Below are positions 7,379 through 23,329 of a DNA stretch of 40,158 nt, piece by piece. Both the position numbers and the translations under genes were made by a program. Below the pieces are notes generated by a model. That model made no database searches, was not told the DNA's origin, and worked only from the letters and a program-made list of their open reading frames with translations. Source of the DNA: Patescibacteria group bacterium (GTDB taxonomy: Bacteria; Patescibacteriota; Minisyncoccia; Moranbacterales; GWC2-37-73); NCBI GenBank assembly GCA_036391995.1, contig DASVYU010000021.1:1-40158 (forward strand), written 5' to 3'. Within the stretch, counting starts at the first letter, position 1. Each line of letters begins with the position of its first letter.

Positions 7379-7383
7379 AATTA

Positions 7384-8042: not shown

Positions 8043-8249
8043 TTATTTAACTACAAAAGGTACCAAAGCCATCACGCGAGCGCGCTTGATAGCTTGGGAA
8101 AGCGTTCTTTGGTGCTTCGTGCAGATGCCATGGCGCTTTGGAGGATAGATTTTTCCTTGGCTGTTCATGAAGCGGCGGATGAGGTAAGCATCCTTGTAGT
8201 CGATTTTGTCCATCTTCTGATCACAGAAGTAACAAGTCTTTTTTTCCAT
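8043..8249 (-). CDS. rpsR: 30S ribosomal protein S18
   Basis: The translation (MEKKTCYFCDQKMDKIDYKDAYLIRRFMNSQGKIYPPKRHGICTKHQRTLSQAIKRARVMALVPF) is a full-length S18. Confidence 0.9.
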   Translation of the reverse strand: MEKKTCYFCDQKMDKIDYKDAYLIRRFMNSQGKIYPPKRHGICTKHQRTLSQAIKRARVMALVPFVVK

Positions 8250-8370
8250 AATTCAATGTGATGCTAATCAACGAATGGAACACTAATCTACGAATTGCGA
8301 ATGGATTTCAACAGAATTTATTCGCGATTTGTGGATTGGCATTTATTTGTGGATTCGCATCGTTTATTAT
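8250..8370. promoter_or_regulatory. Paralogous intergenic element E2, upstream of rpsR
   Basis: Same architecture as E1 and E3: two direct ctaatcNacgaat half-sites plus an inverted pair ggattgg/ggattcgca. Confidence 0.6.
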
Positions 8371-8853
8371 TTAAAACGGTACATCCTCGATTCTTACTTC
8401 GTCGGATTCCTCATCCAGATTGATGGTCGGAATCTCTTCTGCTGCTGGAGCTGCAGGTTTGCTAGCAGGCGCTGGAGTCGAGGCTTGTGGGGCAAGGCGA
8501 TTGTAGCTTCCGCTTCCCGCGCCGCTTGGGCGGCTTCCCATTTGCATATTCTCGGCAATTATTTCCGTAGTCCTTCTTTCCACTCCATCTTTGCCAGTGT
8601 AGGCACGTGTCTCTAGGCGTCCTTCGAAATAAGCCTCCTGACCTTTAGTGAGGTATTGGCCGGCTATTTCAGCTAGGCGTCCCCAGATTACGATGTTGTG
8701 GAACTCAGTCTTTTCCTGCTTCTGACCGCTCTTGTCCATCCAGGTGCGTCCGGTGGCTAAACCGACGGTCGCTACCGTCTGTCCTGAAGGAGTGGTGCGG
8801 AGTTCGACGTCACGCGTGAGGCGTCCGATGAGTTGGACTTTGTTCAAATTCAT
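8371..8853 (-). CDS. ssb: Single-stranded DNA-binding protein
   Basis: OB-fold N-domain (MNLNKVQLIGRLTRDVELRTTPSGQTVATVGLATGRTW), a Gly/Pro/Ala-rich linker and an acidic tail ending DEESDEVRIEDVPF. Confidence 0.9.
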   Translation of the reverse strand: MNLNKVQLIGRLTRDVELRTTPSGQTVATVGLATGRTWMDKSGQKQEKTEFHNIVIWGRLAEIAGQYLTKGQEAYFEGRLETRAYTGKDGVERRTTEIIAENMQMGSRPSGAGSGSYNRLAPQASTPAPASKPAAPAAEEIPTINLDEESDEVRIEDVPF

Positions 8854-8971
8854 AGAATTTGTGTGATGCTAATCTACGAATGCAACACTAATCTACGAAT
8901 TGCGAATGGATTCAAGTTTGTTTTATTCGCAATTTGCGGATTGGCATTTATTGGCGGATTAGCATATTTAA
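8854..8971. promoter_or_regulatory. Paralogous intergenic element E3, upstream of ssb
   Basis: gatgctaatctacgaatgcaacactaatctacgaattgcgaatgg ... attcgcaatttgcggattggcatttattggcggattagcata. Confidence 0.6.
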
Positions 8972-9577
8972 TTAGATGTTGAGCAATTCGTCCAGCTGCT
9001 TGTCGATGTCCTTGGACTCGGCTTCTTTCTTGCTCTTTTTTGGAGCTTCTTTCACCTCTTCAACTTTGGTTTCCTCGACTTTTTCTTCTTTGACTTCTTC
9101 CTTAATTTCAGCTATAGGCTTAACTTCCTCTTTGACTGCTTCCTTGGCTTCTGGCTTTGGGGCAGCTTTCTTTTCTGGGCGCTGAGCTTTGACTGGAGCT
9201 TGCTTGGCATTTCCGAGCTCTTGCTCTTTGCGGCGCTGCTTGGCTCCGAGATCTGGCAGATCTTCAGTCTTCACGATCAGGAAGCGGAGCACATCATTGT
9301 TGAGGTTCAGTTTGTTGGTGATGGCTTGGATGCCGAATTCTTTCTCAGCATTCTTTTCGTCAGCCCAATATTCGACCTCAGGAAGTTCGAAACGGCGGGT
9401 GATGTAGGTTCCGCGATTCTGGTGCTTGATTTCATAGGCAAGCTTCCTTTTTTCAACAATCTCTTCTTCGAGTATTGTTGCTCCTTCTTGAGTGAGCATG
9501 GCGCTCACGCTATTGCGGATCGCGTCGAGATTGGCCTCTTGGCGTTCTCCGACGAGATAGAACAGTTCGTACTGCAT
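8972..9577 (-). CDS. rpsF: 30S ribosomal protein S6 with a long K/E/A-rich C-terminal extension
   Basis: The S6 core begins at MQYELFYLVGERQ (ATG at 9577; the ORF tool start at 9592 adds MYNKI). A low-complexity KEEVKEE tail of about 90 aa follows. Confidence 0.85.
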   Translation of the reverse strand: MQYELFYLVGERQEANLDAIRNSVSAMLTQEGATILEEEIVEKRKLAYEIKHQNRGTYITRRFELPEVEYWADEKNAEKEFGIQAITNKLNLNNDVLRFLIVKTEDLPDLGAKQRRKEQELGNAKQAPVKAQRPEKKAAPKPEAKEAVKEEVKPIAEIKEEVKEEKVEETKVEEVKEAPKKSKKEAESKDIDKQLDELLNI

Positions 9578-9598
9578 AATTTTATTATACATTATTTA

Positions 9599-9660
9599 TT
9601 AACGGGTTAACGGGTTAACGCGTTAGGGATTCCAACTCGTGAACTCGTGAACTCGTGAAC
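9599..9660. promoter_or_regulatory. Upstream module, left copy: 3x CCGTTAAC-type tandem octamers and 3x CTCGTGAA tandem octamers; reads toward rpsF
   Basis: ttaacgggttaacgggttaacgcgtta ... aactcgtgaactcgtgaactcgtgaa. The reverse complement is present at 16120-16182. The distance from the GTTAAC repeats to the rpsF ATG is 21 nt. Confidence 0.6.
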
Positions 9661-9735
9661 TGTTGAATAAATAAACCCTCCAATAAAGAAAGCCGCGCCT
9701 TTTGGAGGATTCTTCCGACTTATCCTTTTGTTAAG

Positions 9736-9758
9736 CCCCGAAGGGGTCCCTTCGGGAC
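9736..9758. other. Two adjacent tetraloop-type hairpins in an untranslated region
   Basis: ccccgaagggg followed by gtcccttcgggac, a C(UUCG)G-type loop, between divergent rpsF and the island promoter. Confidence 0.3.
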
Positions 9759-9822
9759 AAAAAAGGCGAGTCAGAATCGGACTTTCTAAATTGTTTAAAT
9801 AGTATACACTATTGACATAATT

Positions 9823-9857
9823 TGTCAAATATGCTAGATTACACAGTTCACATTTTT
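9823..9857 (+). promoter_or_regulatory. Candidate promoter with an overlapping palindromic operator, for the flotillin island
   Basis: TTGACAtaattTGTCAA (an inverted repeat over the -35), a 17-nt spacer, then TAGATT. Further inverted repeats downstream: gagtatttttt/aaaaaatactc and ctggaa-N6-ttccag. Confidence 0.4.
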
Positions 9858-10019
9858 GATCTTTAGAGTATTTTTTGTAGTGCGAAAAAATATAAAAAAT
9901 ACTCTGGAAGTCAATTTCCAGGCTAGCAATCTTTACAACTGAATTAATGAAATGAAAGGAGGGAAAAGGATTTGAGATTGTAAAATCCAAGAGAGGACTG
10001 AGTGGAAGTTAAACATCAA

Positions 10020-11981
10020 CGACAAGAAAAGGAGAGTAAGATGAAAGAAATGATTCCGCATTTGCCCTCATGGATCCCGTACCTGCTGTTTCTTCTGCCC
10101 GTTGCCTTCTGCATCGTCTTCTACCGTCTCGTGATCCGGATCGGCGGAGTGGTCATCATTCCGGAAGATTCCATAGGGATCGTGAACAAGAAGTTTGTGC
10201 TCTGGGGGACAAACAAGAACTTGCCCGACGGCAAGATCATCGCCCTCAATGGCGAGGCTGGCTGGCAGGCCGACGCGCTTGCTCCCGGTGTGCATTACCG
10301 GAAGTGGCCATGGCAGTACGAGATCAAGATTGAGAAGATGTTCGTCGTGCCGGCTGGTAATATCGCTACTGTGTATGCCAGAGACGGCGTCGCGATCGAG
10401 GGAGGCCGAGTTCTCGGCAGGAAGGTTAACTGCGACACATTCCAGGATGCCAGGAAGTTTCTGGTAAACGGAGGGGAGCGCGGTCAGCAGATCGCCTTCA
10501 TTCCCCAGGGAACATACCGTATCAACACCGCTCTGTTTGAAGTAAAGACGGAAAAGGTCTACGAAGTTCCGAGCGGGAAAGTCGGCGTTATCACGACCAA
10601 GGATGGCAAAGAACTGCCCAAGGACGAGATCGCCGGTGAGAAAGTAGATGGGCACGATTCCTACCAGAACGGCCAGGCTTTTATGGACAATGGCGGCTGG
10701 AAAGGGCGTCAGGCGCAGGTCATTCTTGCCGGACGGTATTTTATCAACCCGTTCTTTGCCGAAGTGGAACTGGTCGACATGACGGAGGTTCAGATCGCGC
10801 ATGTAGGCGTCGTCATCCAGCTCTACGGCAAGGCTGGTACCGATGTTTCCGGTGATGATTTCCAGCATGCCAGCCTGGTTGGACAGGGAGAGAAGGGCGT
10901 CTGGAGGGACCCACTTGACCCTGGTCTCTATGCGATCAACCCCTGTACCCACAAGGTTGTCCAGGTGCCCACGCAAAACATCGTCCTTAACTGGGCCGAT
11001 GATACCTTTGAATCGCACAGGTATGACGAAAAACTGAGCTCGATCACTGTCCGTTCCATGGACGGTTTCAGCTTCACGCTGAACGTCAGCCAGATCATCC
11101 ACATTTCCCGTAACTATGCTTCCTACGTGATTGCGCAGTTCGGCAGCGTGGAGAGTCTGGTCAACAACGTGTTGTCGCCGCTGATCGGAAACTACTTTCG
11201 AAACAGTGCGCAGAACAGCAATGTGATCTCTTTCCTGAGCGAGCGCAACCAGCGCCAGGATCAGGCCAAGGACAAGATCCAGGAAGTTTTGACCAAGCAT
11301 CATGTCACTTCGGTCGACACGCTGATTGGCGACATTAATCCGCCGGAAGAACTGCTCGAACCGCTCAAACAGAAACAGATCGCCGAGCAGCAGAAGCTCA
11401 CCTTCGCTGTCCAGCAGGAAGCTCAGGTGGAACGGCAAAAACTGGAACAATCTAGAGCCATGGCTGAAACCCAGGCGAGCGTCGTTTCTTCGGAGCGCCA
11501 GGTGGCGATCAAAAAGTTCGGTGCTGAAGCTGTCCAGGAAGAAGCCAAGGGTACGGCCGGCGCCAAGACGATCAACGCCAAGGCGGACGCTGAGGTGCTG
11601 AAAGTCGTCGGTATGGCCGAGGCTGAGAAAATCAAGGCTGTCGGTGGTGCCGAAGCGGATGTTATCAAGCAGAAGATTGATTCCATGGAAGCCGGTAACT
11701 ATGCCCTGGTTCTCGTGGCGGAACATCTGGCTAAAGCTGGGGTGCCCTTGGTACCGCAGATCACGGCTGGTGGAAGTGGTGGTGCTGAAGGCGGGCTGGT
11801 CAATGTCCTCCTCGGAACGCTGCTTCACGACAACCTGAAAAAGGCGGCTGTAACACCAGCTGCGGCTCCGCAGGCTGCCCATCTCGAAGCCGTAGCAGCT
11901 GCTGAACCGGCTGCAGCACCCGCTGCCTCGGCGTCCGAAGAGAGGAATGAGCCGGCTGCAGGCGAATCTGTCGAGGAATAA
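10020..11981 (+). CDS. Flotillin-like SPFH protein (YqiK/FloT family), in a high-GC island
   Basis: N-terminal TM (IPYLLFLLPVAFCIVFY), an SPFH core, and a flotillin-type C-terminal AEAE region (VVGMAEAEKIKAVGGAEADVIKQKIDSMEAGNYALVLVAEHLAKAGVPLVPQI). Strong SD (aaaaggagag) before ATG 10020. Local GC about 57%. The ORF tool start at 10002 is 6 codons longer. Confidence 0.75.
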   Translation, partial: RQEKESKMKEMIPHLPSWIPYLLFLLPVAFCIVFYRLVIRIGGVVIIPEDSIGIVNKKFVLWGTNKNLPDGKIIALNGEAGWQADALAPGVHYRKWPWQYEIKIEKMFVVPAGNIATVYARDGVAIEGGRVLGRKVNCDTFQDARKFLVNGGERGQQIAFIPQGTYRINTALFEVKTEKVYEVPSGKVGVITTKDGKELPKDEIAGEKVDGHDSYQNGQAFMDNGGWKGRQAQVILAGRYFINPFFAEVELVDMTEVQIAHVGVVIQLYGKAGTDVSGDDFQHASLVGQGEKGVWRDPLDPGLYAINPCTHKVVQVPTQNIVLNWADDTFESHRYDEKLSSITVRSMDGFSFTLNVSQIIHISRNYASYVIAQFGSVESLVNNVLSPLIGNYFRNSAQNSNVISFLSERNQRQDQAKDKIQEVLTKHHVTSVDTLIGDINPPEELLEPLKQKQIAEQQKLTFAVQQEAQVERQKLEQSRAMAETQASVVSSERQVAIKKFGAEAVQEEAKGTAGAKTINAKADAEVLKVVGMAEAEKIKAVGGAEADVIKQKIDSMEAGNYALVLVAEHLAKAGVPLVPQITAGGSGGAEGGLVNVLLGTLLHDNLKKAAVTPAAAPQAAHLEAVAAAEPAAAPAASASEERNEPAAGESVEE

Positions 11982-11997
11982 CGAACCGCAAGGTTCA

Positions 11998-12031
11998 CTG
12001 TCGAGGGGTGGAGCGGATTCGCTTCACCCCT
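11998..12031 (+). other. Compound hairpin between the flotillin gene and the small gene
   Basis: GAGGGGTG-gagcggattcgctt-CACCCCTC; an 8-bp stem enclosing an inner AGCG/CGCT hairpin. Confidence 0.4.
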
Positions 12032-12056
12032 CATTTCATAGGAGGAAAATCTCGCA

Positions 12057-12508
12057 TGAAAAGAGCTCCATTGTTTTGCAAGGGCGTAATCATCGTCTGT
12101 GAAGACTTCCGACTTCATCAGCGCCCTGATGGAAGCAATGTCGTGGCGGAGCTCGTCAAAAAGCTTGGCTACGATTGCGACATCATTACGCGTGGGGGAG
12201 GGATTCTTGATCTCGTTTCTCCTGAAGACGTTGGAGCGGGATTCGACAGATCAATGATGCGTGACATCAAGGTGGCGGAAATTCTTCATCAGGCCGAGGA
12301 AATCACGATCATCGGTCATGAGGACTGCCGCGCCTACGGTTACCGGCATATGCCCACAATGCAGGCTGAACTGAATCTGATTCATGCTGACATGCGTCGT
12401 GGCGCCAGCGTGCTGAAACGTATCTTTCCGAAAGCGAACGTATCTCTCCAGGTTGCAAGACTTCTGGCGGGATCTGTCGACAAGTTTGAACTTACGAAAC
12501 TTGCGTAA
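12057..12508 (+). CDS. Small hypothetical protein with beta-carbonic-anhydrase-like (Cab-type) C-x-D-x-R ... H-x-x-C motifs
   Basis: VIIVCEDFRL ... ITRGGG ... IIGHEDCRAYG. The spacing roughly resembles small beta-class carbonic anhydrases, but the assignment is tentative. SD ggagga before ATG 12057. High GC. Confidence 0.3.
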
Positions 12509-12530
12509 GAATCGACATGCAATTGCAATG

Positions 12531-12561
12531 CCCTACTGAGCAATCGGTAGGGTGTTTTTTT
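12531..12561 (+). terminator. Rho-independent terminator
   Basis: CCCTAC-tgagcaatcg-GTAGGG followed by a T7 run. Confidence 0.6.
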
Positions 12562-12659
12562 ATTCAATAAATATTGACAGATCATTTGATTTATGATACG
12601 TTTTTAAGTTCGCAGTTCGTTGTTATTATCAAAAAACACTCCAAAGGGGGAGCGACCAA

Positions 12660-13781
12660 ATGGCAAACTTGATCAAAGTGTGGTGGAAAAGAAGTTTTTT
12701 CAGAAGAATGTGGCGGGAAACATATGGACATCACTCTTCTGGAAACAATGAATATGTCCAGATGGGCAGCACTAAAGTTGAGAGATCAAGGGAATTGGAG
12801 GGAGAATCTCAGATAAAGTTGTCTGAGCCTCCACAGTCATCTCCCAAACCGATGACTGAATCGGAATTCAGATGTCTGCTCGGAGGAATCAGTGACTTCA
12901 AAGAGCTGAAAAGCCAGTATGACAGCTGTCCTTCACAATTTGATCCGATTATTGGCGAGAGACTGAAAAAAATTCTTTCCAACGTCACGGATATTGAAGA
13001 GTTGGAAGATGCGAGTCAGCTGGACTTCGGCGAATTCAACGAAATTATTGATGAACGATACGAGAAACTCCTCCCTGCTTTTCTTAGGGATGCATCGCTT
13101 GAAGACATCGAAGCGCGTTATGAATATTGCCCTGATCAGGAGCGTTTCGGCGAGCAGATGAAAAAGCGCTATGCAGAACTTCTGGATGAAATTGATTCAT
13201 TTGATGATCTCGAAGAACGCAGAAAGGCATGCCCGGAAGATTTCGCTGAGCTTTTTCGCGTCCCGTATCAGAAGCTTCTCTACGCGATTAGTTCGGTCGA
13301 AGAGCTTGATGATTATTTCGACAATTGTCCGGATGAGTTTGAAGATTTCTATCTAGGACCATATGACAAGTTGCTTGCTGAATTAGAAACGCTTGAAGAT
13401 CTGCAGGGGCTGTATAGAGAGTCCCATGAACACTTCGGCCCATTGTATGGCTACCATTACAAGAGGCTTCTAGAAAAGGAAGAATCTCTTGAAGGCCTTG
13501 AAGGAACATACAATGATTGCAAGGAGGATTTTGATGGACTCATAATCGTTCGCTATTCGCAGCTCCTTTGGAAAGTCGATGGCATAGATGAACTAAGTAA
13601 TCGACTTGATGAATGTCCTGCGGCGTTCAATGGTCTGATATATGCCCGTTGTCGCGAGCTTGTATTCCAGAAAATGCCGAGAATGTCGGCGAGCGAGCGC
13701 GATTCGCTGTGTGAAGACATTGCTGATGATTTCAAACCGATTGCCGTCGCTTGCCGCGATCTGTTGAATTTAGAGAAATAA
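12660..13781 (+). CDS. Novel tandem-repeat protein: 8 repeats of about 33 aa
   Basis: Repeats such as SLEDIEARYEYCPDQERFGEQMKKRYAELLDEI / DSFDDLEERRKACPEDFAELFRVPYQKLLYAI / SSVEELDDYFDNCPDEFEDFYLGPYDKLLAEL give the consensus s-h-E-E/D-L-x3-Y-x2-C-P-x2-F-x7-Y-x-K-L-L. The N-terminus is basic and aromatic (MANLIKVWWKRSFFRRMW). SD aaggggga upstream. Confidence 0.6.
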   Translation: MANLIKVWWKRSFFRRMWRETYGHHSSGNNEYVQMGSTKVERSRELEGESQIKLSEPPQSSPKPMTESEFRCLLGGISDFKELKSQYDSCPSQFDPIIGERLKKILSNVTDIEELEDASQLDFGEFNEIIDERYEKLLPAFLRDASLEDIEARYEYCPDQERFGEQMKKRYAELLDEIDSFDDLEERRKACPEDFAELFRVPYQKLLYAISSVEELDDYFDNCPDEFEDFYLGPYDKLLAELETLEDLQGLYRESHEHFGPLYGYHYKRLLEKEESLEGLEGTYNDCKEDFDGLIIVRYSQLLWKVDGIDELSNRLDECPAAFNGLIYARCRELVFQKMPRMSASERDSLCEDIADDFKPIAVACRDLLNLEK

Positions 13782-13802
13782 TATTTTCCGAAATCGGAAG
13801 CA

Positions 13803-13833
13803 GCCCTACTGGGAAAATAGTAGGGCTTTTTTA
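13803..13833 (+). terminator. Rho-independent terminator
   Basis: AGCCCTAC-tgggaaaata-GTAGGGCT followed by T6; the same CCCTAC/GTAGGG stem family as the terminator at 12531. Confidence 0.65.
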
Positions 13834-13987
13834 TGGACAATTCGGTTGTAGAGTTGTAATATATATAACTAAGTCTAAGTTTTAAATTTTAAGTTTGAAA
13901 TGAGTTTTAAATGACTAAATGTTTTAAAACTTAGGCATTTAGGATTGAATTAAAATTTAAAAATTAGCCCTTAAAACTTGTGTAGTC

Positions 13988-15946
13988 ATGGATTTTGAGA
14001 TTTCTAGCAAATATAAGCCTGCCGGCGATCAGCCGCAGGCCATTGAATTGCTCACATACGGGCTGGAACATCAGCAGAAGTTTCAGACGCTTTTGGGTGT
14101 GACTGGATCGGGCAAGACTTTCACGATTGCCAATGTGATCGAGAATGTGCAGAAGCCCACTTTGGTGATCGCGCCCAACAAGACTTTGGCAGCGCAGCTG
14201 GTGCAAGAATTTCGCACCTTCTTTCCCAAGAACGCTGTGGAATATTTCGTGTCCTATTACGACTATTATCAGCCGGAAGCCTACATCGCTTCGACTGATA
14301 CATATATCGAAAAGGAAGTACAGATCAATGATGAGATCGACAGATTGCGTCATGCTGCAACCTCCGCTTTGCTTTCCAGGCGCGATGTGATCATCGTTGC
14401 ATCGGTTTCCTGCATCTACGGCTTGGGAAGCCCGGACTATTATCGTGAAGGGACTGTTTCGGTTGTTGTCGGAGAAAAAGCTTCACGCGAAGCGATCATG
14501 AAAGGCATGATAGATATGCAATATCATCGCAGTGAGGTTCTGGAGCGCGGCAAGTTCCGCGTGATCGGCGACACGATCGAAGTGATCACGCCTGGCAGAG
14601 AGATCGTGTCACGCATCGAATTGGAAGATGGCTTGGTCAAAAGAATCCAAGAATATGATTTCCTGACGGGCGAAAAACTGGGAGATCTCAAGCAGACGCT
14701 TATTTATCCAGCCAAACATTTTGTGGTGCCAGAACCTGTCATGCAGGCAGCACTGGAAGAGATTGAACAGGAAGCCAAGGAAAGAGTGGAATATTTCAAA
14801 GCCAAAGGCAAGCTTCTGGAAGCGGAGAGGATTTCTCGCAGAACCAAACAGGATCTGGAGATGATGCGCGAGATCGGCTATTGCAATGGCGTGGAGAATT
14901 ATTCGCGCTATCTGACAGGCCGTAATGAAGGCGAGCCGCCATACACTTTGGTGGATTATTTCCCGGAAGATTTTCTTTTGGTGATCGATGAATCGCACGT
15001 GACCATCCCGCAGCTTAGTGCCATGTATAACGGGGATCGTGCCAGAAAAGAAGCGCTGATCGAAAACGGCTTCCGTCTGCCGAGCGCTTTTGACAATCGC
15101 CCGCTCAAATTTCCGGAATTCGAATCGCACATCAACCAGCTCATTTTCACTTCGGCTACTCCTGGAGCATATGAGAAGCAGAATTCTTCCCAGATGGTGG
15201 AACAGATCATCCGCCCGACGGGGCTCATCGACCCGGAGCTCATCATCAGGCCAGCCAAGGGGCAGGTCAAAGATGTGCTGCCTGAAATAGAGAAGGTCAT
15301 CGAGAAAAAGGAACGCGTCTTGATCACGACGCTCACTAAGAAGATGGCGGAGGATCTGGCGGAATTCTTGAAGGAACATGGCATCAAATGCGAGTATCTG
15401 CATTCCAGTGTGGACACTCTGGATCGCATCAGGATATTGGAAGGCCTCAGGCGAGGGGATTTCGACGTGCTGGTGGGAGTCAATCTTCTGCGCGAAGGCT
15501 TGGATCTGCCGGAAGTTTCCCTGGTAGCCATTCTGGATGCGGACAAGGAAGGATTCTTGCGCAGCGAGACTTCGCTCATCCAGACCATAGGCCGCGCCGC
15601 GCGTAACGTGAACGGCAGAGTGCTTCTCTATGCTGACAACATGACCGGCTCCATGCAGAGGGCGATCGATGAGACCAATCGCCGCCGGGAGAAGCAGCTG
15701 GCCTACAACAAGAAGCACGGCATCACCCCTAAGACTATCCAGAAGAACATCAAATCCATCGTGGATCACGAGATCAACCCCCAGGTACCGACTGATTTTT
15801 CACAAGTGGAATCCCTAGAGGACATTGCTGGCTACATCAAACAGAAAGAGAAAGAGATGAAAGACGCGGCCCGTGCCCTGGAGTTCGAGAAAGCGGCTCT
15901 TATCCGCGATGAGATTTCCCAGCTCAGGAAATTGCAAATAAAATAG
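13988..15946 (+). CDS. uvrB: Excinuclease ABC subunit B
   Basis: Helicase motifs (GVTGSGKTF; DESH), a beta-hairpin region and a C-terminal UVR domain ([18 protein letters not shown]). Confidence 0.95.
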
Positions 15947-15954
15947 GCGTTCTT

Positions 15955-16051
15955 GCCCGCACACCAACCCAGGCGTTTTTATTTTGTGTGATTTGTTTTA
16001 TCTGCTTGTATTTATGCAATAAATATCAACATGAAAGGTTGGTGTGTGGGC
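15955..16051 (+). other. Long-range inverted repeat forming a hairpin of about 100 nt downstream of uvrB
   Basis: gcccgcacaccaaccc at 15955-15970 pairs with ggttggtgtgtgggc at 16037-16051, with one mismatch, across a U-rich interior. Confidence 0.35.
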
Positions 16052-16119
16052 TTGCGTACATTTATAATGCCTAGTAAAATACAAGAGACTCAAGGTCTCC
16101 TTTGTAGTTGGTTGAAAAG

Positions 16120-16182
16120 TTCACGAGTTCACGAGTTAGCGGGTTTATTTATCCAACGCGTTAACCCGTTAACCCGTTAACT
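16120..16182. promoter_or_regulatory. Upstream module, right copy: 2x TTCACGAG and 3x GTTAACCC-type octamers; reads toward the DsbA-like gene
   Basis: ttcacgagttcacgag ... aacgcgttaacccgttaacccgttaac is the reverse complement of 9599-9660. It sits 18 nt before ATG 16201, the same geometry as at rpsF. Confidence 0.6.
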
Positions 16183-16200
16183 GAATAATAAATATTCAAT

Positions 16201-17268
16201 ATGGAAAACGAAGACAAAAAGGCAGAAGGGAAAGTTGAGGAGAAAAAAGCAGCATCGACGACATCAGCATCTCCGGCTTGGAGCGACAAGAAGAAAACCT
16301 GCAAAGACAAGCTGTGTGCTTTCTGGGACAAGCATAAGAAAACTGTCTTGGCTGTGCTGGTACTTCTGGTTTTGGTGGGTGGCAGCTTCGCATATAAATA
16401 TTTTCCAAAAAGAACTGACATTGGTCCTGCAGCGGCAAAAACAAAATTGACTGACTTCATTAACAAGAATCTTCTGCAGCCAGGCACGACTGCTGACATA
16501 ACTGAAATCGTGAAAGAAAACGGTCTCTATAAGGTGACGGTCAGCGTGGGATCGCAGAAAATCACCGCTTATTTGACTGAAGATGGCAGCAAGTTCTTTC
16601 CTCAAGTGATTGATCTCGATGCTGCTCCCAAGCAAGACAATCAACAGGCAGCGAATGAAAAAAGCGCACCTGATCAAAAACAGGATGTTCCGGAAGTGAA
16701 ACTTTTCGTGATGAGCTACTGCCCATATGGACTTCAAATGGAAAAAGGATTGTTGCCTGCCATTGAATCTCTTGGTAGCAAGATCAAATTCAGTTTGGAA
16801 TTTGTTGATTACACGCTGCATGGACAGAAGGAAGTTGATGAGAACACTAGACAATACTGTATCCAGAAAACTCAGCCGGCTAAATTGGACAGCTACCTTA
16901 AATGCTTCTGGAAAGATGCTTCCGGCGCGTCTGATGCTTGCATGAAATCTGTTGGCATCAATACTGCCCAGGTTTCCAGCTGCGTAAGCGATACCAATAA
17001 GCAGTTTGCTCTAACAGAGAAAGACTACGGTATCAACAAGGATGACAATGATAAATACGGTGTGCAAGGATCTCCTACGCTTGTGGTCAATGGTACGACT
17101 GTTTCCTCTGGGCGTGATAGCGCTAGCGTGCTGAAAGCTATCTGCAGCGGATTTAATAATGCCCCAAAAGAATGTTCAGCTGCGCTTTCTTCTACTGCGC
17201 CAGCCCCAGGTTTTGATAGCCAGGGAGCAGGCAGCGGATCTGCAAGCTCTGCAGCATCTTGCCACTGA
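16201..17268 (+). CDS. Membrane-anchored DsbA-family thioredoxin-fold protein with a degenerate CPYG active site
   Basis: TM anchor (VLAVLVLLVLVGG). A thioredoxin_4/DsbA-like C-domain with FVMSYCPYG, i.e. a single Cys where CxxC is expected, and a cis-Pro motif VQGSPTLVVNG. Confidence 0.6.
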   Translation: MENEDKKAEGKVEEKKAASTTSASPAWSDKKKTCKDKLCAFWDKHKKTVLAVLVLLVLVGGSFAYKYFPKRTDIGPAAAKTKLTDFINKNLLQPGTTADITEIVKENGLYKVTVSVGSQKITAYLTEDGSKFFPQVIDLDAAPKQDNQQAANEKSAPDQKQDVPEVKLFVMSYCPYGLQMEKGLLPAIESLGSKIKFSLEFVDYTLHGQKEVDENTRQYCIQKTQPAKLDSYLKCFWKDASGASDACMKSVGINTAQVSSCVSDTNKQFALTEKDYGINKDDNDKYGVQGSPTLVVNGTTVSSGRDSASVLKAICSGFNNAPKECSAALSSTAPAPGFDSQGAGSGSASSAASCH

Positions 17269-17283
17269 TCCGAACTTTTTTTG

Positions 17284-17312
17284 AAAGCCATCTGTTGAGG
17301 ATGGCTTTTTTA
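17284..17312 (+). terminator. Rho-independent terminator
   Basis: AAGCCATC-tgttgag-GATGGCTT followed by a T6 run. Confidence 0.6.
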
Positions 17313-17387
17313 TTGCTGAAATTAAAGTTGGCAGGGCATGTATTACATGGCAACGATTTGACCGAAAAAAGAAAAAGGAGGTGTGCC

Positions 17388-17759
17388 ATGAAACCGAAGG
17401 AATTTTCGGACGAGTCATTTTTTCAAGAGATCATTGAAAATGGGCAGCTCAGGGCTGTGATTGTAATCGGAGCCCAATATAGCGCTGACGTGTTCAGAAT
17501 GGTAAATCGCGCCATGCCGGCAATAGCTGAAAGCTACGGAGAAAGGGTGCTTTTCGGTTTTGTATATACGCATGACAGGAGAGGGGAAGTTGTGAATCCC
17601 TTGGTTTTCCAAAGATATCCAATCGGAACACATCCGCTCATACTGGGTTTCAAGAAAGGTATTGAGGTGTGCGGCAGGATAGTGTCCATGGGCAACATTG
17701 ATCAGCAGATGGCTGATCTTAAAATGGTTGCAAGAAGGGTTTTGATGCGGCCGAGATAA
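17388..17759 (+). CDS. Thioredoxin-like small protein without redox cysteines, hypothetical
   Basis: Thioredoxin-like topology (VIVIGAQYSADVFRMV ... PLILGFKKGIEV), with AQYS in place of CxxC. Strong SD (aaaaggagg) and elevated GC, unlike the flanking native genes. The ORF tool start at 17259 is unlikely. Confidence 0.4.
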   Translation: MKPKEFSDESFFQEIIENGQLRAVIVIGAQYSADVFRMVNRAMPAIAESYGERVLFGFVYTHDRRGEVVNPLVFQRYPIGTHPLILGFKKGIEVCGRIVSMGNIDQQMADLKMVARRVLMRPR

Positions 17760-17917
17760 TATATTGTCCCATGCTTGTAATTGGCAGTACTGGCGGTCCT
17801 CCAAAGAAGGGCCGCTTTTTCTTTGCATTGATTTTTAATCCGAGGCGTAGTATTATGGGACATGGTTTTAAATGTATAGCACGCGTGCATTTGCGCGACA
17901 ATTTTCCTTTTTGGCAC

Positions 17918-17948
17918 GCTTTTGGATGAATACACGATATCCAAAAGC
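17918..17948. promoter_or_regulatory. 10-bp perfect inverted repeat upstream of uvrA
   Basis: GCTTTTGGAT-gaatacacgat-ATCCAAAAGC. A perfect GCACGCGTGC palindrome lies nearby at 17879-17888. Confidence 0.3.
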
Positions 17949-18029
17949 TCAAGAGCCGTTACCGCCGGCTATTGGCCAAAAAGAAAAACAGTCGCGCCTA
18001 ATAAAATTCGCAAGTCATGATTTAAACAA

Positions 18030-20948
18030 ATGGAAGACAAGATAATAATCCGCGGGGCAAGGGAACATAATTTGAAGAACATAAACCTTGATCTGCCGCG
18101 AGACAAATTCATAGTGTTTACGGGACTTTCAGGGTCGGGAAAATCGACCCTGGCTTTTGATACGATTTTCGCTGAAGGACAGAGGAGATATTTGGAAAGC
18201 CTTTCAAGCTACGCGCGCCAATTCTTGGGGCAGATGGACAAGCCGGATGTGGATCATATCGAAGGGCTTTCGCCGGCTATCTCCATCGACCAGAAATCTA
18301 CCACGCACAACCCGCGCTCGACCGTGGGAACTGTGACGGAAATCCATGATTATCTGCGTCTGCTCTATGCCAAAATCGGCGTTCCGCATTGTCCGGTCTG
18401 CGGACGTGAGATTTCTAAACTATCCACTGATGAAATCGTGGATCGCATTTTGGAGCTGTCTGAAAAACATTCGCAGACAATTGAGATCCTTGCTCCGGTC
18501 GTGCGCGAAAGGAAAGGTGAATATCTGGCGCTTTTGGATGACATGTGGAAAAGAGGATTTTCCGAGGCGACAGTGGATGGCAAACGCATGCAGCTGGAAG
18601 ATTTCAAGGATATGAAACTTGAACGTTACAAGAAACACAGCATCGACATTGTGGTAGACAAATTGACTGTCAGTGAAGATAGCATCACGCGCATATTCGA
18701 AGGCGTGGAAAGATCGCTTCGCATGGCGGAAGGATTGGTGAAAATAAGATGCATCTCCAATGAAGCTAAAAGCCAAAAGCTAGAAGCTAAAAGCCATTCG
18801 AAGTGTTTTGCGGAGCAGATTTTCAATCAGAAACTTTCCTGTCCGATCCATGACATCCAATTTCCGGAATTGGAGCCGCGTCTTTTCTCTTTCAATTCTC
18901 CCTATGGCGCCTGTGAAGCTTGCGAAGGATTGGGACTCAAGAAGGAGATCGATCCGCATCTGATCATGCCTGACATAAACAAGACGATCGCGGAGGGAGG
19001 TTTTGCTCCTTGGAATTTCAAGAAAAACAACTATTATGGCGGCGTGATACTGTCAGCCGCACGCTTTTTCAATGTGCCCGACAATGTGCGCTTGCGTGAT
19101 CTGCCCAAGAAGAAGCTCAATCTAATGCTCTACGGAACCACCGAAGAAGGCATGGAGGCGACAGAGGAAGATGCTGAGGAGATTCCGATCACCATAAGGG
19201 CCAAGACTGGTACTAATTGGAAATTCTACATGGAATGGCACGGCGTGCTTGGTTTCATGCGAGACAGGTATTTTAAGACCGAGTCAGACACAGTGCGTGC
19301 GAACATGGAGAAATATATGTCGCAGAAGCCTTGCAGTGTCTGCAAAGGCTCACGTTATAAGCGCGATGTGCTTTTGGTGACGGTGGGAGAAAAAAACATC
19401 CATGAAGTCTCCACTTTGAGCGTGTCTGATTCCAAGCAATTCTTCGAAGATTTGAAACTGACCAAAAGAGAAACCATGATTGCGGGCAGGATCCTCAAGG
19501 AAATAAACGCGCGCCTGACATTCTTGAACAATGTGGGCTTGGATTATCTCACGCTGCATCGCGCGGCTTATTCTCTTTCAGGTGGTGAAGCACAGCGCAT
19601 CCGTTTGGCTTCGCAGATCGGCTCGCAATTGGTGGGAGTCTTGTATATCCTGGATGAACCATCGATCGGACTGCATGCGCGTGACAACACCAAGCTCATA
19701 GAGACTCTTAGGCAATTGCAGGAAATAGGCAACACTCTGATCGTGATCGAGCATGATGAAGAAATGATGCGGCATGCAGATTGGTTGGTGGACATCGGAC
19801 CAGGCGCCGGCAAGCATGGCGGCGAAATCATTGCACAAGGCAAACCTGAAGATGTTATCGCAAGCAAGAAATCCCTGACGGGCAAATACCTGCGAGGCGA
19901 ATTGGAAATCGAAATTCCCAAGATGCGCCGCGCAGTCAATAAGAAAAAATTCATCACGGTGAGAAATGCCAGTGAGCATAATCTCAAGAATGTGACAGCG
20001 GAATTTCCGCTTAGAGTTTTCACTTGCGTGACAGGTGTTTCCGGCTCGGGAAAATCGACTTTAGTGGAAGACACTTTGTATAAAGCTTTGGCCAACAAAC
20101 TGCACCGCGCTTTGGATGTGCCTGGCAGGCATCAGGAAATCGTGGGTATCGAGAACATCAACAAAGTCATCATGATCGACCAGTCGCCGATCGGACGCAC
20201 GCCGCGCTCGAATCCTGCGACATATACGGGACTTTTCACGCATATCCGCGAACTGTTCGCGCAGACAAAAGATGCCAAACTCCGAGGCTATGGTCCAGGC
20301 AGGTTCTCATTTAACATTGCCGGCGGGCGCTGTGACAACTGTTCCGGAGAAGGATTCTTGAAAATAGAGATGCAATTCATGCCAGACGTCTATCTGCCTT
20401 GTGATGTCTGCTCAGGTAAGAGATATAACAGTGAGACATTGCAAGTGAAATATAAAGGCAAGAATATTTCCGAAGTTCTTGGCATGACTGTTTCGGAAGG
20501 CGCGGAATTCTTCGCAGCTTTTCCTAAGATCGCTGAACCATTGAAAGTTTTGGAAGATGTAGGATTGGGCTATATCGAGCTAGGGCAGAGCGCAACGACT
20601 CTCTCTGGAGGAGAAGCGCAGAGAATCAAGTTGGCAGCGGAACTTTCGCGCCGTGCGACGGGTGACACGCTGTACATTCTGGACGAGCCAACCACGGGCT
20701 TGCATTTCGATGACATTAAAAAACTTTTGGGAGTATTGAATCGTTTGGTGGATGCTGGCAACACAGTGGTTGTCATTGAGCATAATATGGATGTCATCAA
20801 GACTGCAGACTGGATCATAGACATGGGACCGGAAGGTGGAGATGGCGGAGGACGCATCGTGGTAACAGGCTCGCCGGAAGAAGTCATCAAATATCACAAG
20901 GAAAGCTACACGGCGAAATATCTGAGAGAAGTGCTCAAGAAAAAATAG
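18030..20948 (+). CDS. uvrA: Excinuclease ABC subunit A, full-length class I type
   Basis: Two ABC modules ([10 protein letters not shown]; [12 protein letters not shown]), signature LSGGEAQR twice, zinc-finger and insertion domains. Contains an in-frame tandem-repeat insert at 18762-18800. Confidence 0.95.
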
Positions 20949-21009
20949 AAATGATTATTCCACAAAAAGACGATCGTCTAAAAGTGGGATAATGCTTTGA
21001 GAAGAATAA

Positions 21010-21045
21010 AAAGCTGATGCACGCGTGGGCGCATCAGCTTTTTTG
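21010..21045 (+). terminator. Rho-independent terminator after uvrA
   Basis: AAGCTGATGC-acgcgtgg-GCATCAGCTT followed by T6. Confidence 0.65.
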
Positions 21046-21061
21046 TTACCAGATTCCTGAT

Positions 21062-21469
21062 TCAGGATACTGACTCTAAAAATGTCTTCAGAGAATGATA
21101 GATGACTCTCAGGAAGACCACATTCTCTCCCGGAAGTTTTTTCTCCAGCGTGGCATTTCTGAAGAACTCTTCCAGTGTCACTTTATCGGGAATCTGCTGG
21201 AGTTCTTCGAATTTCATGCCATTGGAGTTGGCAATTTGCGGTATGTATTGGCAGAGCATGTTATCCAGGCGGTCTTTGAGCCTGGAGTCTATGTTCCTGT
21301 TCCAGATGGCAGTCTGGATCTGCTGCAGAAGCTGCTTCACCATCCTGTCGCTGCCCACGAGCCCGACAATAGACGGACAATACTTGCCGAAGCTGACTTG
21401 CTCGAGCATGGGCAAAGCCCTTCGAAAATCATTTCTGCTGGCTGGGCGGTTCATTTTTGCGGCCATCAT
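21062..21469 (-). CDS. Hypothetical protein, 135 aa: gene B of a higher-GC two-gene insert
   Basis: Own SD (aaaggagaag) before ATG ATG. No recognisable domain. GC near 50%. Confidence 0.45.
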   Translation of the reverse strand: MMAAKMNRPASRNDFRRALPMLEQVSFGKYCPSIVGLVGSDRMVKQLLQQIQTAIWNRNIDSRLKDRLDNMLCQYIPQIANSNGMKFEELQQIPDKVTLEEFFRNATLEKKLPGENVVFLRVIYHSLKTFLESVS

Positions 21470-21511
21470 CTTCTCCTTTGGGTTGGTGTTGAAATCATTT
21501 CGTTTTACACA

Positions 21512-21856
21512 TTATTCATGGCTGTCGAGGATTTGCTTCTTGATCGCGTTGATTCTGGAGTCTTCGATGAAACTGAAGTTTTTGAATAAGGAAGTGAGTC
21601 TGTGGTAGAGCTCGTAGAAAGCATCGGACGTAGTTGAGTTGTTGGTATACTTTACGTCGGTATATTTGCCGATAATCTCCAGCATCCGGCATGTTTCTTT
21701 TTCGTGATCCGCAACGACATCATCGGACATCCGGAAATATTTGATGCAGTCCTGGAGCCATTCGTGGTAGGTGCTGCGTTCTGTGGGAAGCAGGAGTGTT
21801 TGTTCGAGATCATCCATGAAATCCCTTCCTTGCGGGGTTAATTTCCACTTGACCAT
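21512..21856 (-). CDS. Hypothetical protein, 114 aa: gene A of the two-gene insert
   Basis: SD aaaggagga 6 nt before the ATG. No recognisable domain. Co-oriented with gene B and 42 bp upstream of it. Confidence 0.45.
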   Translation of the reverse strand: MVKWKLTPQGRDFMDDLEQTLLLPTERSTYHEWLQDCIKYFRMSDDVVADHEKETCRMLEIIGKYTDVKYTNNSTTSDAFYELYHRLTSLFKNFSFIEDSRINAIKKQILDSHE

Positions 21857-21940
21857 AATCCAATCCTCCTTTGCCTTTTTAAGGCAATCAGTTGTAATAT
21901 TCAGTTGGATAGGTACGACATTATATTATACTCCTTTTTT

Positions 21941-23329
21941 ATGAATTTGTCCAGTATAAAGCAAAAAATAGCTCAGTTGCCTCAGAATCCGGGGGTATAT
22001 TTTTTCTGCGACTCGGCAGGGGCAATCCTCTATATAGGCAAGGCGACGAATTTGAGAAGCCGGGTTTCTTCCTATTTCCGTGGTTTTGGTGCGGGGGAGT
22101 TGAGCTCCCAAATGCAAAAAGGGAGCTCAACTCCCTTTGTGGCTGGAAGAAGTGAGTGGATTGGTTTAATGGTTTCGCAAATTGCAAATATTGATTTTCA
22201 AGAAACAGACAGCGTCTTGGAAGCGCTCATTCTGGAAAGCAACCTGATAAAGAAGCATCAGCCCAAATACAACACGCTGGAAAAGGACGACAAGAGCTTT
22301 GCGTATTTTGTGATTACCAAAGAGGATTTTCCACGCATCTTGATTCTTCGAAAAACTGATATTGATTTTGAAAATCTAGAAGCTAAAAGCTATAAGCTAA
22401 AAGCTATCTTCGGCCCATACACAAGCAAATACCAGATGGAAACGGCGCTCAAAATCATGCGCCGGATCTTTCCGTTCCATGCGCTCAAGCAGAAAACAGA
22501 AAAAGGCTGTTTGGATTTCCAGTTGGGCATGTGTCCTGGTCCATATGAAGGCGCGATCTCCAAAGAGGATTACAAAAAGAATATCCGCGGCATCCGGATG
22601 ATCCTGGAAGGCAAGAAAAAAAGATTAGTGACGACATTGGAAAAAGAGATGCAGATCCTTGCCAAAAAAAACGAATTCGAAAAAGCTGCCGAGATTCGCA
22701 ACAAAATATTCGCACTCAATCATATTATGGATATTGCGCTTATGACTAGAGATTTTGATAATTTAGAATTTCCAATTTCGAATTTCGAATCAAATCAGAA
22801 TGACATAATTTCGAAAAATAAATCATTAGAAATTCATTCAAAATTCAAAATTCAAAATTCAAAATTGTTCAGGATTGAGGCATATGATATTTCAAATATT
22901 TCTGGACAAAATGCAGTGGGCTCAATGGCGGTTTTTGAAAATGGAAAACCTGCTAAATCACAATATCGCAAATTCAAGATAAAAACGATTGAAGGCAGCG
23001 ATGATGTGGGCAGCATGCGAGAGGTCTTGTCACGGCGCTTCCACAATGATTGGCCGATGCCTGATCTTATTCTGCTCGATGGTGGGCAAGGGCATTTGAA
23101 TATGGCAACAAAACTGTTATTGGAAGAAATGGGCTTGGCTTTGAATATCGCAGCTGTTGCCAAAGGTCCCACCCGCAAGAAGTTGGATGTGCGAATCGCT
23201 GGATCTGTGCCACCTTCAGTCAAGTATATTCTGGCGGATCAGAATCTTTTGAAGTCCATCATGGATGAAGCGCATCGTTTCGCGATCACATTCCATCGCA
23301 AGCTCCGCCGCAAAAACGCTTTGCAATGA
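21941..23329 (+). CDS. uvrC: Excinuclease ABC subunit C, compact form lacking the C-terminal HhH domain
   Basis: GIY-YIG (GVYFFCDSAGAILYIGKATNLRSRVSSYF ... EALILESNLIKKHQPKYN), a UVR domain (EFEKAAEIRNKIF) and an RNaseH-like endonuclease domain (RIEAYDISN...). Likely start at ATG 21941. Carries three in-frame inserts (22095-22135, 22372-22404, about 22760-22870). Confidence 0.85.
   Translation: MNLSSIKQKIAQLPQNPGVYFFCDSAGAILYIGKATNLRSRVSSYFRGFGAGELSSQMQKGSSTPFVAGRSEWIGLMVSQIANIDFQETDSVLEALILESNLIKKHQPKYNTLEKDDKSFAYFVITKEDFPRILILRKTDIDFENLEAKSYKLKAIFGPYTSKYQMETALKIMRRIFPFHALKQKTEKGCLDFQLGMCPGPYEGAISKEDYKKNIRGIRMILEGKKKRLVTTLEKEMQILAKKNEFEKAAEIRNKIFALNHIMDIALMTRDFDNLEFPISNFESNQNDIISKNKSLEIHSKFKIQNSKLFRIEAYDISNISGQNAVGSMAVFENGKPAKSQYRKFKIKTIEGSDDVGSMREVLSRRFHNDWPMPDLILLDGGQGHLNMATKLLLEEMGLALNIAAVAKGPTRKKLDVRIAGSVPPSVKYILADQNLLKSIMDEAHRFAITFHRKLRRKNALQ
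22095..22135. repeat. Perfect 15-bp-arm palindrome inserted in-frame in the uvrC GIY-YIG region
   Basis: GGGAGTTGAGCTCCC-aaatgcaaaaa-GGGAGCTCAACTCCC. It encodes extra residues (GELSSQMQKGSSTPF) between SYFRG and the conserved MVSQIANIDF. Confidence 0.8.

Follow-up and report, generated by a model that had tools for sequence, protein, structure and literature searches.

Canonical Shine-Dalgarno motifs at a Moranbacteria uvrABC locus precede accessory genes in variable slots and may mark a portable gene class

Results

Six genes of the window start behind a Shine-Dalgarno motif

The window analysed here is the entire 40,158-bp contig DASVYU010000021.1 (44% GC), and this work concerns the canonical Shine-Dalgarno (SD) motifs that precede six of its genes, which we call SD1 to SD6. 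The UvrB protein of the window is 83-86% identical to proteins of Candidatus Moranbacteria/Moraniibacteriota metagenome-assembled genomes; Moranbacteria are a phylum within the Parcubacteria group of Patescibacteria (the candidate phyla radiation, CPR). The contig opens with the C-terminus of ftsK, a 344-amino-acid (aa) membrane protein and recA, followed by a variable block between recA and efp (2896-7301) and by efp, rpsR, ssb and rpsF on the minus strand. SD1 to SD3 lie on the plus strand between rpsF and uvrB. Next come uvrB, a native gene for a thioredoxin/DsbA-like secreted protein (16201-17268), SD4 and uvrA, with SD5 and SD6 on the minus strand between uvrA and uvrC. Then follow, in order, uvrC, a gene for a DsbD_2/cupredoxin/HMA protein, copZ, copA and the gene of a 1305-aa surface protein, and the contig ends with an ABC ATPase, an ABC permease, a second uvrA and rsmI.

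SD strength was calculated as the duplex energy against CACCUCCUUU. At six starts (ATG at 10041, 12056, 12660 and 17388 on the plus strand and at 21469 and 21856 on the minus strand) we found a canonical SD with an energy of −8.9 to −15.6 kcal/mol and a spacing of 3-10 nt, in keeping with the usual definition of an SD-led start (at least 4-5 nt complementary to 3′-UCCUCC-5′, about 4-10 nt from the start codon). The motifs on the plus strand are AGGAG at 10030-10034 (6 nt before the ATG of SD1; −9.4 kcal/mol), AGGAGG at 12040-12045 (10 nt before that of SD2; −10.2 kcal/mol), GGGGGAG at 12646-12652 (7 nt before that of SD3; −10.9 kcal/mol) and AAGGAGGTG at 17376-17384, the strongest of the window (−15.6 kcal/mol), whose GGAGG core lies 6 nt from the ATG of SD4. 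Those on the minus strand are AGGAG at 21473-21477 (3 nt before the ATG of SD5 at 21469 and 6 nt before a second ATG at 21466; −8.9 kcal/mol) and AGGAGG at 21865-21870 (8 nt before the ATG of SD6; −11.8 kcal/mol). An earlier sequence-only reading of this DNA had reported strong motifs at these six genes, and the energies and spacings agree with it. Four of the six start positions it gave are correct; its 10020 falls in the 5′ untranslated region (UTR) of SD1, whose true ATG at 10041 fits the 646-aa NCBI protein, and its 12057 is 12056.

The same reading held that the native genes lack a GGAGG-type SD, and this too was borne out. The starts of recA, efp, rpsR, ssb, rpsF, uvrB, both uvrA genes, uvrC, copA, rsmI, the surface protein and the ABC permease gave +3.6 to −1.6 kcal/mol, that of copZ −3.3 kcal/mol and that of the ABC ATPase −6.2 kcal/mol, the last from a weak GGT..GGTAA at a 4-nt gene overlap. 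The start energies of the window are bimodal, not graded. When genes with an orthologue in the loci of relatives were counted as backbone and all others as non-backbone, an SD was present in 6 of 13 non-backbone genes compared to 0 of 17 backbone genes (Fisher p = 0.003).

Conserved genes of the lineage start without an SD

We took about 22 kb around uvrB from 80 genomes, in which a simple greedy caller picked out long open reading frames (ORFs); every ORF was then scored at its first ATG. The Moranbacteria-like sample comprised 50 loci and the Firmicutes comparison 16 loci; several records titled 'uncultured Bdellovibrionales' were treated as mislabelled because they cluster with Moranbacteria in identity and gene order. 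Conserved genes were those with homologues in at least three other Moranbacteria loci, and an SD was counted at −8 kcal/mol or below. In the Moranbacteria-like loci 6.7% of ORFs reached this threshold compared to 2.9% of internal ATGs, while the same method gave 43% compared to 3.2% in the Firmicutes loci. Only 4 of 361 conserved Moranbacteria genes (1.1%) were SD-led, against 48 of 414 rare ORFs (11.6%; p = 5e-10), the latter divided into 16 of 105 found in one or two other loci and 32 of 309 unique ones; 48 of the 52 SD-positive first-ATG ORFs in the lineage sample are rare or unique. Since orthologues are not independent, the test was repeated at the level of families, with an SD in 0 of 34 families present in at least four loci, 8 of 43 present in two or three loci (p = 0.008) and 32 of 314 singletons (p = 0.036). 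About 10-19% of rare families are SD-led and 81-90% have no SD.

Low GC content is not the cause of the missing motif, because Firmicutes loci of 33-39% GC had SDs of −9 kcal/mol or below at 33-70% of their starts. Nor were hidden SDs found at alternative starts within the first 50 codons of conserved genes beyond the control level (6.6% compared to 6.8% in gene interiors). Several apparent SDs in conserved genes were rejected: those within EKED/ELEG codons are internal coding sequence, the one at uvrA of L038 belongs to a palindrome upstream of an extended ORF, and the one at recA of L046 has a 12-nt spacing. The host lineage does not use the SD on its conserved genes.

The start sites fall into two distinct classes. 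At 357 conserved starts (window and loci L002-L050) A makes up 42-55% and G 8-13% of positions −13 to −3, and position −1 is U in 65% and G in 4% of cases. At SD-led starts G peaks at 75% at position −10 and U at −1 drops to just 17%. The combination of U at −1 with an A-rich stretch at −13 to −3 looks like a lineage-specific Kozak-like signal.

The proteins of the SD-led genes are small, with a median length of 127 aa, and Pfam recognises no family in about 30 of the 42. Those of the relatives include genes for cold-shock-domain and thioredoxin proteins, and searches of PHROGs and PADLOC gave no phage or defence signal in SD-led genes beyond the cold-shock proteins. In the 50 uvrB-centred loci the GC content at third codon positions (GC3) of SD-led rare genes is host-like, with a median shift of −0.007.

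SD-led genes occupy variable slots of a shared backbone

The backbone is a gene order common to 17 relatives: ftsK, membrane protein, recA, efp, rpsR, ssb, rpsF, uvrB, (thioredoxin-like), uvrA, uvrC, DsbD-like, copA. All six SD-led genes of the window occupy gaps in it. SD1 to SD3 form an island of about 4 kb (9829-13832, with an uncertain left edge at 9807-9829) that separates the promoter of rpsF from the divergent one of uvrB. The window matches the rpsF-uvrB spacer of the relatives as far as 9806-9828 and again from about 13833, in native promoter sequence of uvrB; the −35 boxes of the two promoters lie about 12 nt apart in L012 and L013. SD1 to SD3 have no counterpart at the orthologous site in any of the 17 syntenic loci, and no integrase, tRNA or flanking direct repeats were found at the island borders near 9829 and 13832.

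The uvrA-uvrC gap measures 20-85 bp in L004 and L012, in which SD5 and SD6 are absent, and 990 bp in the window, where it contains SD6 and SD5; homologues of these genes occur in L007 and L087. SD4 is missing from most relatives and present in L010 and L012. Other SD-led genes were found in the same slots elsewhere in the lineage, namely cold-shock-domain proteins in the rpsF-uvrB slot (L005, L006), assorted genes of 106-185 aa in the slot after uvrB (L006, L008, L010, L011, L012) and one or two small minus-strand genes in the uvrA-uvrC slot (L003, L007, L013, L017, L021).

The units of the window are bracketed by terminator-like hairpins, and two of the four have a good sigma-70-like promoter match. 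The candidate promoter of SD1, TTGACA-17-TAGATT (9812-9840, plus strand; 10/12), is followed by a 5′ UTR of about 200 nt, and an ATTGACA...TGCTATGCT arrangement likewise stands upstream of an SPFH gene in locus L084. A terminator-like hairpin of 13 pairs, followed by TTTTTAT, closes SD1-SD2 (12527-12556, plus strand) and another closes SD3 (13802-13827, plus strand). The SD4 unit has its upstream edge at the terminator-like hairpin that follows the native thioredoxin-like gene (17283-17309, plus strand) and is closed by a second one at 17792-17816 (plus strand). For the SD6-SD5 operon, the candidate promoter TGGACA-17-TATAAT (21925-21953, minus strand; 11/12) is divergent from uvrC, and a bidirectional terminator-like hairpin of 15 pairs with T-runs on both sides (21008-21043) serves the first uvrA (uvrA1, plus strand) and SD5 (minus strand).

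The SPFH gene of the SD1-SD3 island has foreign affinities and recurs with SD3 in other SD-poor genomes

SD1 (10041-11981, plus strand; 646 aa, 56% GC) encodes an SPFH/Band 7 protein of the YqiK-like flotillin type (Pfam PF01145, 2e-30). Its GC3 is 0.67 compared to about 0.51 in the backbone (+0.16), and its synonymous codon usage deviates with z = −8.1. The protein is 53-57% identical to proteins of Niveibacterium, Uliginosibacterium and Ralstonia (named Betaproteobacteria) and of other Proteobacteria, 62% identical to a copy on the phage-like contig L082, 61% identical to that of another SD-less genome and 47% identical to one encoded by an uncultured phage of 642 kb; at the DNA level the gene is about 64% identical to Ralstonia megaplasmids. 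On these affinities the SPFH gene is a convincing import. Contig L082 (JGI Ga0268283_1000180; 30% GC), with its SPFH gene at 8001-9842, also encodes a prohead protease and many tiny unannotated ORFs, its genes mostly have AAAGGA(G)-type SDs, and it could be a vector for the SPFH family. A separate observation concerns the SPFH leaders of about 200 nt, which hold a strong SD and then a mini-ORF of 3-4 codons (GGAGGG..TTG AGA TTG TAA at 9955-9985 of the window; GGAGAAGGAGGTG..ATG ATG GCG TAG at 7905-7940 of L084); this may be leader-peptide control or coincidence.

SD2 (12056-12508, plus strand; 150 aa) is probably co-transcribed with SD1 and has a weak match to Pro_CA_2, a putative carbonic anhydrase (2.4e-5; 24.9 bits, below the Pfam cut-off of 30). 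Its weak relatives (L011_12490, 3e-4, and one in L008) are all SD-led and lie downstream of uvrB. SD3 (12660-13781, plus strand) encodes a 373-aa acidic repeat protein with recurring C-P-x-x-F motifs and has no Pfam or NCBIfam match. Just three homologues of SD3 were found among 5.8e9 proteins, all on CPR-like contigs, and two of them adjoin an SPFH homologue. One of these loci, L084 (43% GC, other genes without SD), has the SPFH-SD3 order of the window and an SPFH gene with a GC3 of 0.63; in the other, L086 (38% GC), the order is reversed, the site is a different one, and both genes have the host GC3 of 0.35 with the SD AAAGGAG(G)A present. The SD1 motif at 10030-10034 is kept as AAAAGGAGA in L084 and L086, and their SD3 homologues have AAGGAG and AAAGGAGGA. 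Judged by its occurrence at different sites in three genomes, the SPFH gene with SD3 is to be read as a mobile two-gene module among SD-poor genomes. Because the L086 pair is host-like in GC3 yet SD-led, the SD of this module outlasts compositional amelioration.

It is very improbable that these motifs are chance purine runs or that the GC-rich island is chimeric proteobacterial DNA in a CPR contig. The contig does come from a metagenome-assembled genome, and SD1 stands out with 56% GC within 44% GC. However, six correctly spaced hits have to be set against the internal-ATG background of 2.9%, the motif is conserved in homologues, the SPFH-SD3 pair is embedded in two other SD-poor genomes, and the nearest named proteobacterial proteins, at 53-57% identity, are not at contamination level. 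A chimera would moreover need two junctions, because the island fits precisely into the space that separates two native promoters and is bordered by backbone at either end.

SD4, SD5 and SD6 belong to families already present in related Moranbacteria

SD4 (17388-17759, plus strand) encodes a 123-aa thioredoxin-fold protein without a CxxC motif; the family profile matches PDB thioredoxins at 5e-12, and in the alignment AQYSADV stands in place of the family WCGPC. Its homologues L010_2277 (3e-8) and L012_12094 (3e-5) are SD-led and, like SD4, lie directly upstream of uvrA, and further homologues in L020 and L025 lie downstream of uvrB. The closest relatives of SD4 belong to Moranbacteria.

SD5 (21062-21469, minus strand) encodes a 135-aa helical protein of a small unnamed family with conserved PSxVGxxGS...PQxA..NG. 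It is 62% identical to a homologue in L087, a Moranbacteria fragment whose uvrA is 82% identical to that of the window; this homologue is placed tail-to-tail with uvrA as in the window, and its SD is CCAAAGGAGAG. More distant relatives are 22-37% identical, and the five with DNA examined lie on contigs of 47-60% GC and are all SD-led. Since the two Moranbacteria copies are mutually closest (62% compared to at most 37% for outsiders) and share a slot, a single entry before the window and L087 lineages split is indicated. An AlphaFold2 (AF2) model (predicted local distance difference test, pLDDT, 74) gave no PDB fold match (best E 0.9), and kinship with the family that holds the same slot in L007 and L013 was not detectable (hhalign probability 0.8%). 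At 21062-21500 the codon model favours by score a plus-strand ORF (21095-21589); we prefer the minus strand because homologues, SD, promoter-like site and terminator-like hairpin agree on it.

SD6 (21512-21856, minus strand) encodes a 114-aa helical orphan protein. Its homologue L007_17158 (35% identity, E 2e-20) occupies the corresponding slot beside uvrC and has the same orientation, and GCAAAGGAGGA precedes both genes. Besides that of L007 no match was found among 5.8e9 proteins and none in JGI metagenomes, and the single-sequence AF2 model was unreliable (pLDDT 49). Searches of Pfam, NCBIfam, PHROGs and PADLOC for the function of SD3 to SD6 gave no match. A phage origin of these four genes was considered and dropped, as no relatives were found in IMG/VR.

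The SD is kept in homologues whose surrounding sequence has diverged

Across ten homologue families the SD was found at about −3 to −14 in 30/30 members, and the remaining upstream sequence was unalignable. In five window-gene homologue pairs, synonymous divergence (dS) was saturated in three and about 2 in two, with nonsynonymous divergence (dN) of 0.26-0.79; for SD5 and its L087 homologue dN was 0.26 and dS saturated. Retention of the SD by chance is not credible, because neutral sequence has been largely randomised over these distances. The alternatives left are selection for SD function in the hosts or repeated fresh import. Shared slots appear to argue for selection on the SD of SD5 and, less strongly, on those of SD4 and SD6. 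Of the SD-led genes, one at the very least, and perhaps as many as three, would on this evidence be long-term residents.

Retention of the motif could also fit a native regulon in which the anti-SD is normally masked on the ribosome, as in Bacteroidia, and the SD-led mRNAs are read only by some of the ribosomes or in response to a condition such as stress or host contact, so that origin is irrelevant. The gene rpsF (8972-9592, minus strand) encodes a bS6 protein that, at 206 aa, is roughly double the normal length, and its long C-terminal tail, rich in Lys, Glu, Ala and Pro, would suit this idea; in Bacteroidia, bS6 contributes with bS21 and bS18 to anti-SD masking. The cold-shock-domain and thioredoxin proteins among the SD-led genes of relatives and the conservation of the SD across diverged homologues point the same way. 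Bacteroidia are described as having ribosomes that ignore the SD and leaders that are A-rich (PMC13000453, PMC9976891), and the core genes here, with A-rich leaders and almost no SD, resemble those of Bacteroidia (PMC13000453). Yet about 30 of 42 SD-led proteins are orphans without a shared function, and SD-led genes are poorly conserved, unlike a core regulon. In Flavobacterium johnsoniae, moreover, rpsU alone keeps a strong SD, for autoregulation, according to PMC13000453 and PMC9976891, and not dozens of genes; rpsU is absent from the contig and the loci. We consider such a regulon improbable.

Composition does not separate SD-led from SD-less genes

To score codon usage, we trained a model of synonymous codon choice on the backbone genes and used nulls of matched length. 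The deviations of SD6 (p = 0.006), SD5 (p = 0.029) and SD4 (p = 0.049) are marginal, and SD2 and SD3 are typical. The statement that all six SD-led genes are compositionally atypical fails on these values, since it clearly applies to SD1 alone (z = −8.1).

The block at 2896-7301 is strongly atypical and has no SD. It comprises five non-syntenic genes (a second SPFH gene, three genes for low-GC membrane or secreted proteins and an IS200/Y1-like gene), with no counterpart between recA and efp in relatives, and its starts lie in A/T-rich contexts with +0.6 to +2.7 kcal/mol. Four of the five genes are low in GC, and those at 3800-7301 have 32-36% GC and codon-usage z values of −2.3 to −4.1. The sole transposase-like gene, of IS200/Y1 type (6702-7301, minus strand), sits in this SD-less block. 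The low-GC part of the block is flanked by perfect palindromes at 7302-7383, with copies at 6940-6973. An SD-poor donor is the probable source of the segment 3800-7383, which would be a mobile insertion in its own right.

The sequence-only reading had taken the SD as a marker of the lineage of origin, by which all six genes would be recent insertions, each SD a fossil of its donor, and presence or absence of the motif would separate acquired from native genes. We regard this as unlikely. It fits the foreign affinity and composition of SD1, the SD-led members of the SD5 family on 47-60% GC contigs, the non-backbone slots of all six genes and the marginally atypical codon usage of SD4 to SD6. 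It does not fit the SD-less block, the typical composition of SD2 and SD3, the host-like GC3 of SD-led rare genes, the fully host-like SPFH-SD3 pair of L086 that keeps its SD, or the absence of an SD from 81-90% of rare families. As for the genes at 17388 and 21062-21856, which had been flagged as additional insertions, they have homologues in or beside the same slots (L010, L012, L007, L087), with dS at or near saturation and the SD kept, and SD5 in particular weakens the case for recent entry.

A donor translation system may still explain SD1, possibly the deep history of SD5 and, if it came from an SD-poor lineage, the SD-less low-GC block. What a donor fossil misses is the persistence of the motif long after entry, and the pattern of SD4 to SD6 points to long residence with selection on the SD and not to a trace of recent origin. 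The SD does not sort native from acquired genes, because there is an SD-less non-syntenic block, there are SD-less rare families, and some SD-led genes appear to be long-term residents.

Other elements of the window

No tRNA or rRNA was found in the window, and Rfam gave no family at the gathering score and just chance hairpin-like matches at a relaxed threshold. A 16-nt unit, ATTCGTnGATTAGCAT, occurs in nine copies (0.14 expected) in both orientations (7956-8018, 8261-8360, 8866-8965), restricted to the three rpsF-ssb-rpsR-efp spacers, where its copies fold into long hairpins whose ends lie about 12 nt ahead of the start codons. A few copies occur in the relatives L007, L012, L021, L022 and L025, and its Rfam match to a 'miRNA precursor' is just a chance one. 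A palindromic element of about 70 nt with TTAACGGGTTAACGGGTTAACGCG lies just upstream of rpsF (9593-9675) and is repeated in inverted form, at 82% identity, upstream of the thioredoxin-like gene at 16201 (16112-16194); it is conserved in L014 and L021 and could be an operator or a repeat element. The DNA upstream of uvrA1 holds a conserved element (17890-17992; about 100 nt) that is non-coding, contains inverted repeats and has no Rfam match; copies 80-84% identical to it stand upstream of other genes in L013, L008 (twice) and L004. The contig also carries two full-length uvrA paralogues within 40 kb (18030-20948 and 35645-38479), both conserved in the relatives L007, L012 and L015.

Discussion

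We have shown that the start sites divide into two kinds by motif, that the SD-led genes occupy variable slots, that SD1 has foreign affinities and that diverged homologues retain the SD. From this we think it likely, with real reservations, that the SD marks a portable, fast-evolving class of accessory genes that is mostly non-core, and that it acts as a one-way flag and not as a sorter of native from acquired genes. Conserved genes would initiate without an SD, from an A-rich leader at −13 to −3 with U at −1 and almost no G. Canonical SDs would have survived in one minority class alone, that of accessory genes which are small, little conserved and quick to evolve. These would lie in variable slots, in compact units with an SD, a terminator-like hairpin and, in two of four units, a promoter-like site. 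The SD1-SD3 island would have been imported from, or by way of, SD-using bacteria or phages and would circulate among other SD-poor CPR-like genomes, while the SD4 to SD6 families would already have been present in related Moranbacteria, in or beside the same slots, with at least SD5 entering before the lineages split. An SD-led gene would then be very probably non-core, and an SD-less gene either core or acquired. Portability, in the sense of a cassette that can be expressed in any host, may explain why the accessory class carries the motif.

This account presumes that the SD has a canonical 16S tail to pair with in this organism and stays by selection, as we infer from the motif's retention. 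The genomes presumably still have such a tail, because conserved SDs of the relatives extend to AAGGAGGTGAT, and a 16S 3′ end of ...GAUCACCUCCUUU would support functional SD pairing.

Several points weigh against this account. Signature motifs of 16S and 23S rRNA, which would bear on the presumed anti-SD, were found neither on the contig nor in 94 loci, and no release-factor gene with the frameshift SD of prfB turned up either. Tsurumaki et al. 2022 (RNA, PMC9297842) describe a Parcubacteria subgroup, overlapping the group that lacks uL1, without the CCTCCT motif. That article, which makes no mention of Moranbacteria, was the sole work on SD and anti-SD in CPR found in the searched library, and it deals with rRNA only. 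SD-like 5-mers in conserved coding sequences occur at 0.82 of expectation under synonymous shuffling, and their reverse complements at 0.65. We did not accept this avoidance as evidence for a working anti-SD, as both strands are depleted and a cause at the DNA level is possible. SD4 and SD6 are just 29-35% identical to their slot-mates, compared to 80-82% for the flanking uvrA and 64-85% for flanking genes, and allele replacement from an outside pool is possible for both in place of vertical descent. All loci centre on uvrB, so that the conserved class consists of 34 families from one neighbourhood; the gene calling is home-made, and many of the rare ORFs and singletons probably do not represent genes. 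All promoters and terminators named here are matches to a consensus and no more, and a TTGACA/TATGAT candidate before SD3 was rejected for its spacer of 12 nt instead of 17.

A separate observation from the same coding sequences (window and L002-L050) is that CCTCC, CTCCT and ACCTC stand at 0.65 of expectation, compared to 0.93 in the Firmicutes loci. Restriction avoidance or selection on antisense transcripts are possible causes.

If the pattern held genome-wide, the SD would be a cheap, composition-independent flag of accessory genes in CPR genomes, and composition-based detection of transfer misses genes that have already drifted to host composition. Gene-start calling would improve as well, since callers with a single model of the ribosome-binding site would mis-call one class. 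More broadly, and as a speculation that we would sooner doubt than expect, Moranbacteria and perhaps many Patescibacteria may run two initiation codes, an SD-independent one peculiar to the lineage (A-rich leader, U at −1) for the core and the universal SD code, under purifying selection, for a hypervariable pool of small accessory genes exchanged with phages and bacteria. This raises the question whether the anti-SD of CPR ribosomes stays accessible to serve a minority of genes and nothing else. Were its exposure under control, as bS21 controls it in Bacteroidia, the SD would act as a channel to the mobile or 'social' share of a minimal genome that can be switched on and off.

Comparison with known systems

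SD1 to SD3 resemble genomic islands detected by composition in that they are absent at the orthologous site in 17 relatives and that SD1 is GC-rich with foreign best hits. Unlike classic islands, they have neither an integrase nor a tRNA target, and repeats do not flank them. A strong compositional signal is, moreover, missing from four of the six SD-led genes (two have none and two have p = 0.03-0.05), and the compositionally clearest island of the window (3800-7301) is SD-less.

Phage morons are autonomous units of promoter, gene and terminator inserted between conserved genes. The units described here are like them in being compactly laid out among conserved genes (an SD with a terminator-like hairpin and, in two of four units, a promoter-like site) and in their variable presence among relatives. 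Unlike in morons, the backbone is chromosomal housekeeping DNA (recA, ribosomal proteins, uvrABC) and not a prophage, and there is no PHROG or PADLOC signal beyond cold-shock proteins.

Within the same broad clade, the subgroup of Tsurumaki 2022 (PMC9297842) shares a theme with our results: some parts of CPR do not use SD pairing by default. That work examined rRNA, whereas we examined mRNA start sites and gene classes. SD-independent initiation has also been described for the 'group B' genomes of GeneMarkS-2 (bioRxiv 10.1101/193490).

Bacteroidia offer the closest parallel, as far as the uvrB-centred loci go: conserved genes without SD, A-rich leaders and a small minority of genes with strong SDs. 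The Parcubacteria-group lineage belongs to a different phylum, its starts differ from theirs in a strong preference for U at −1, and here the SD-led minority is not one rpsU but many small, mostly orphan accessory genes, which make up about 10-19% of rare families.

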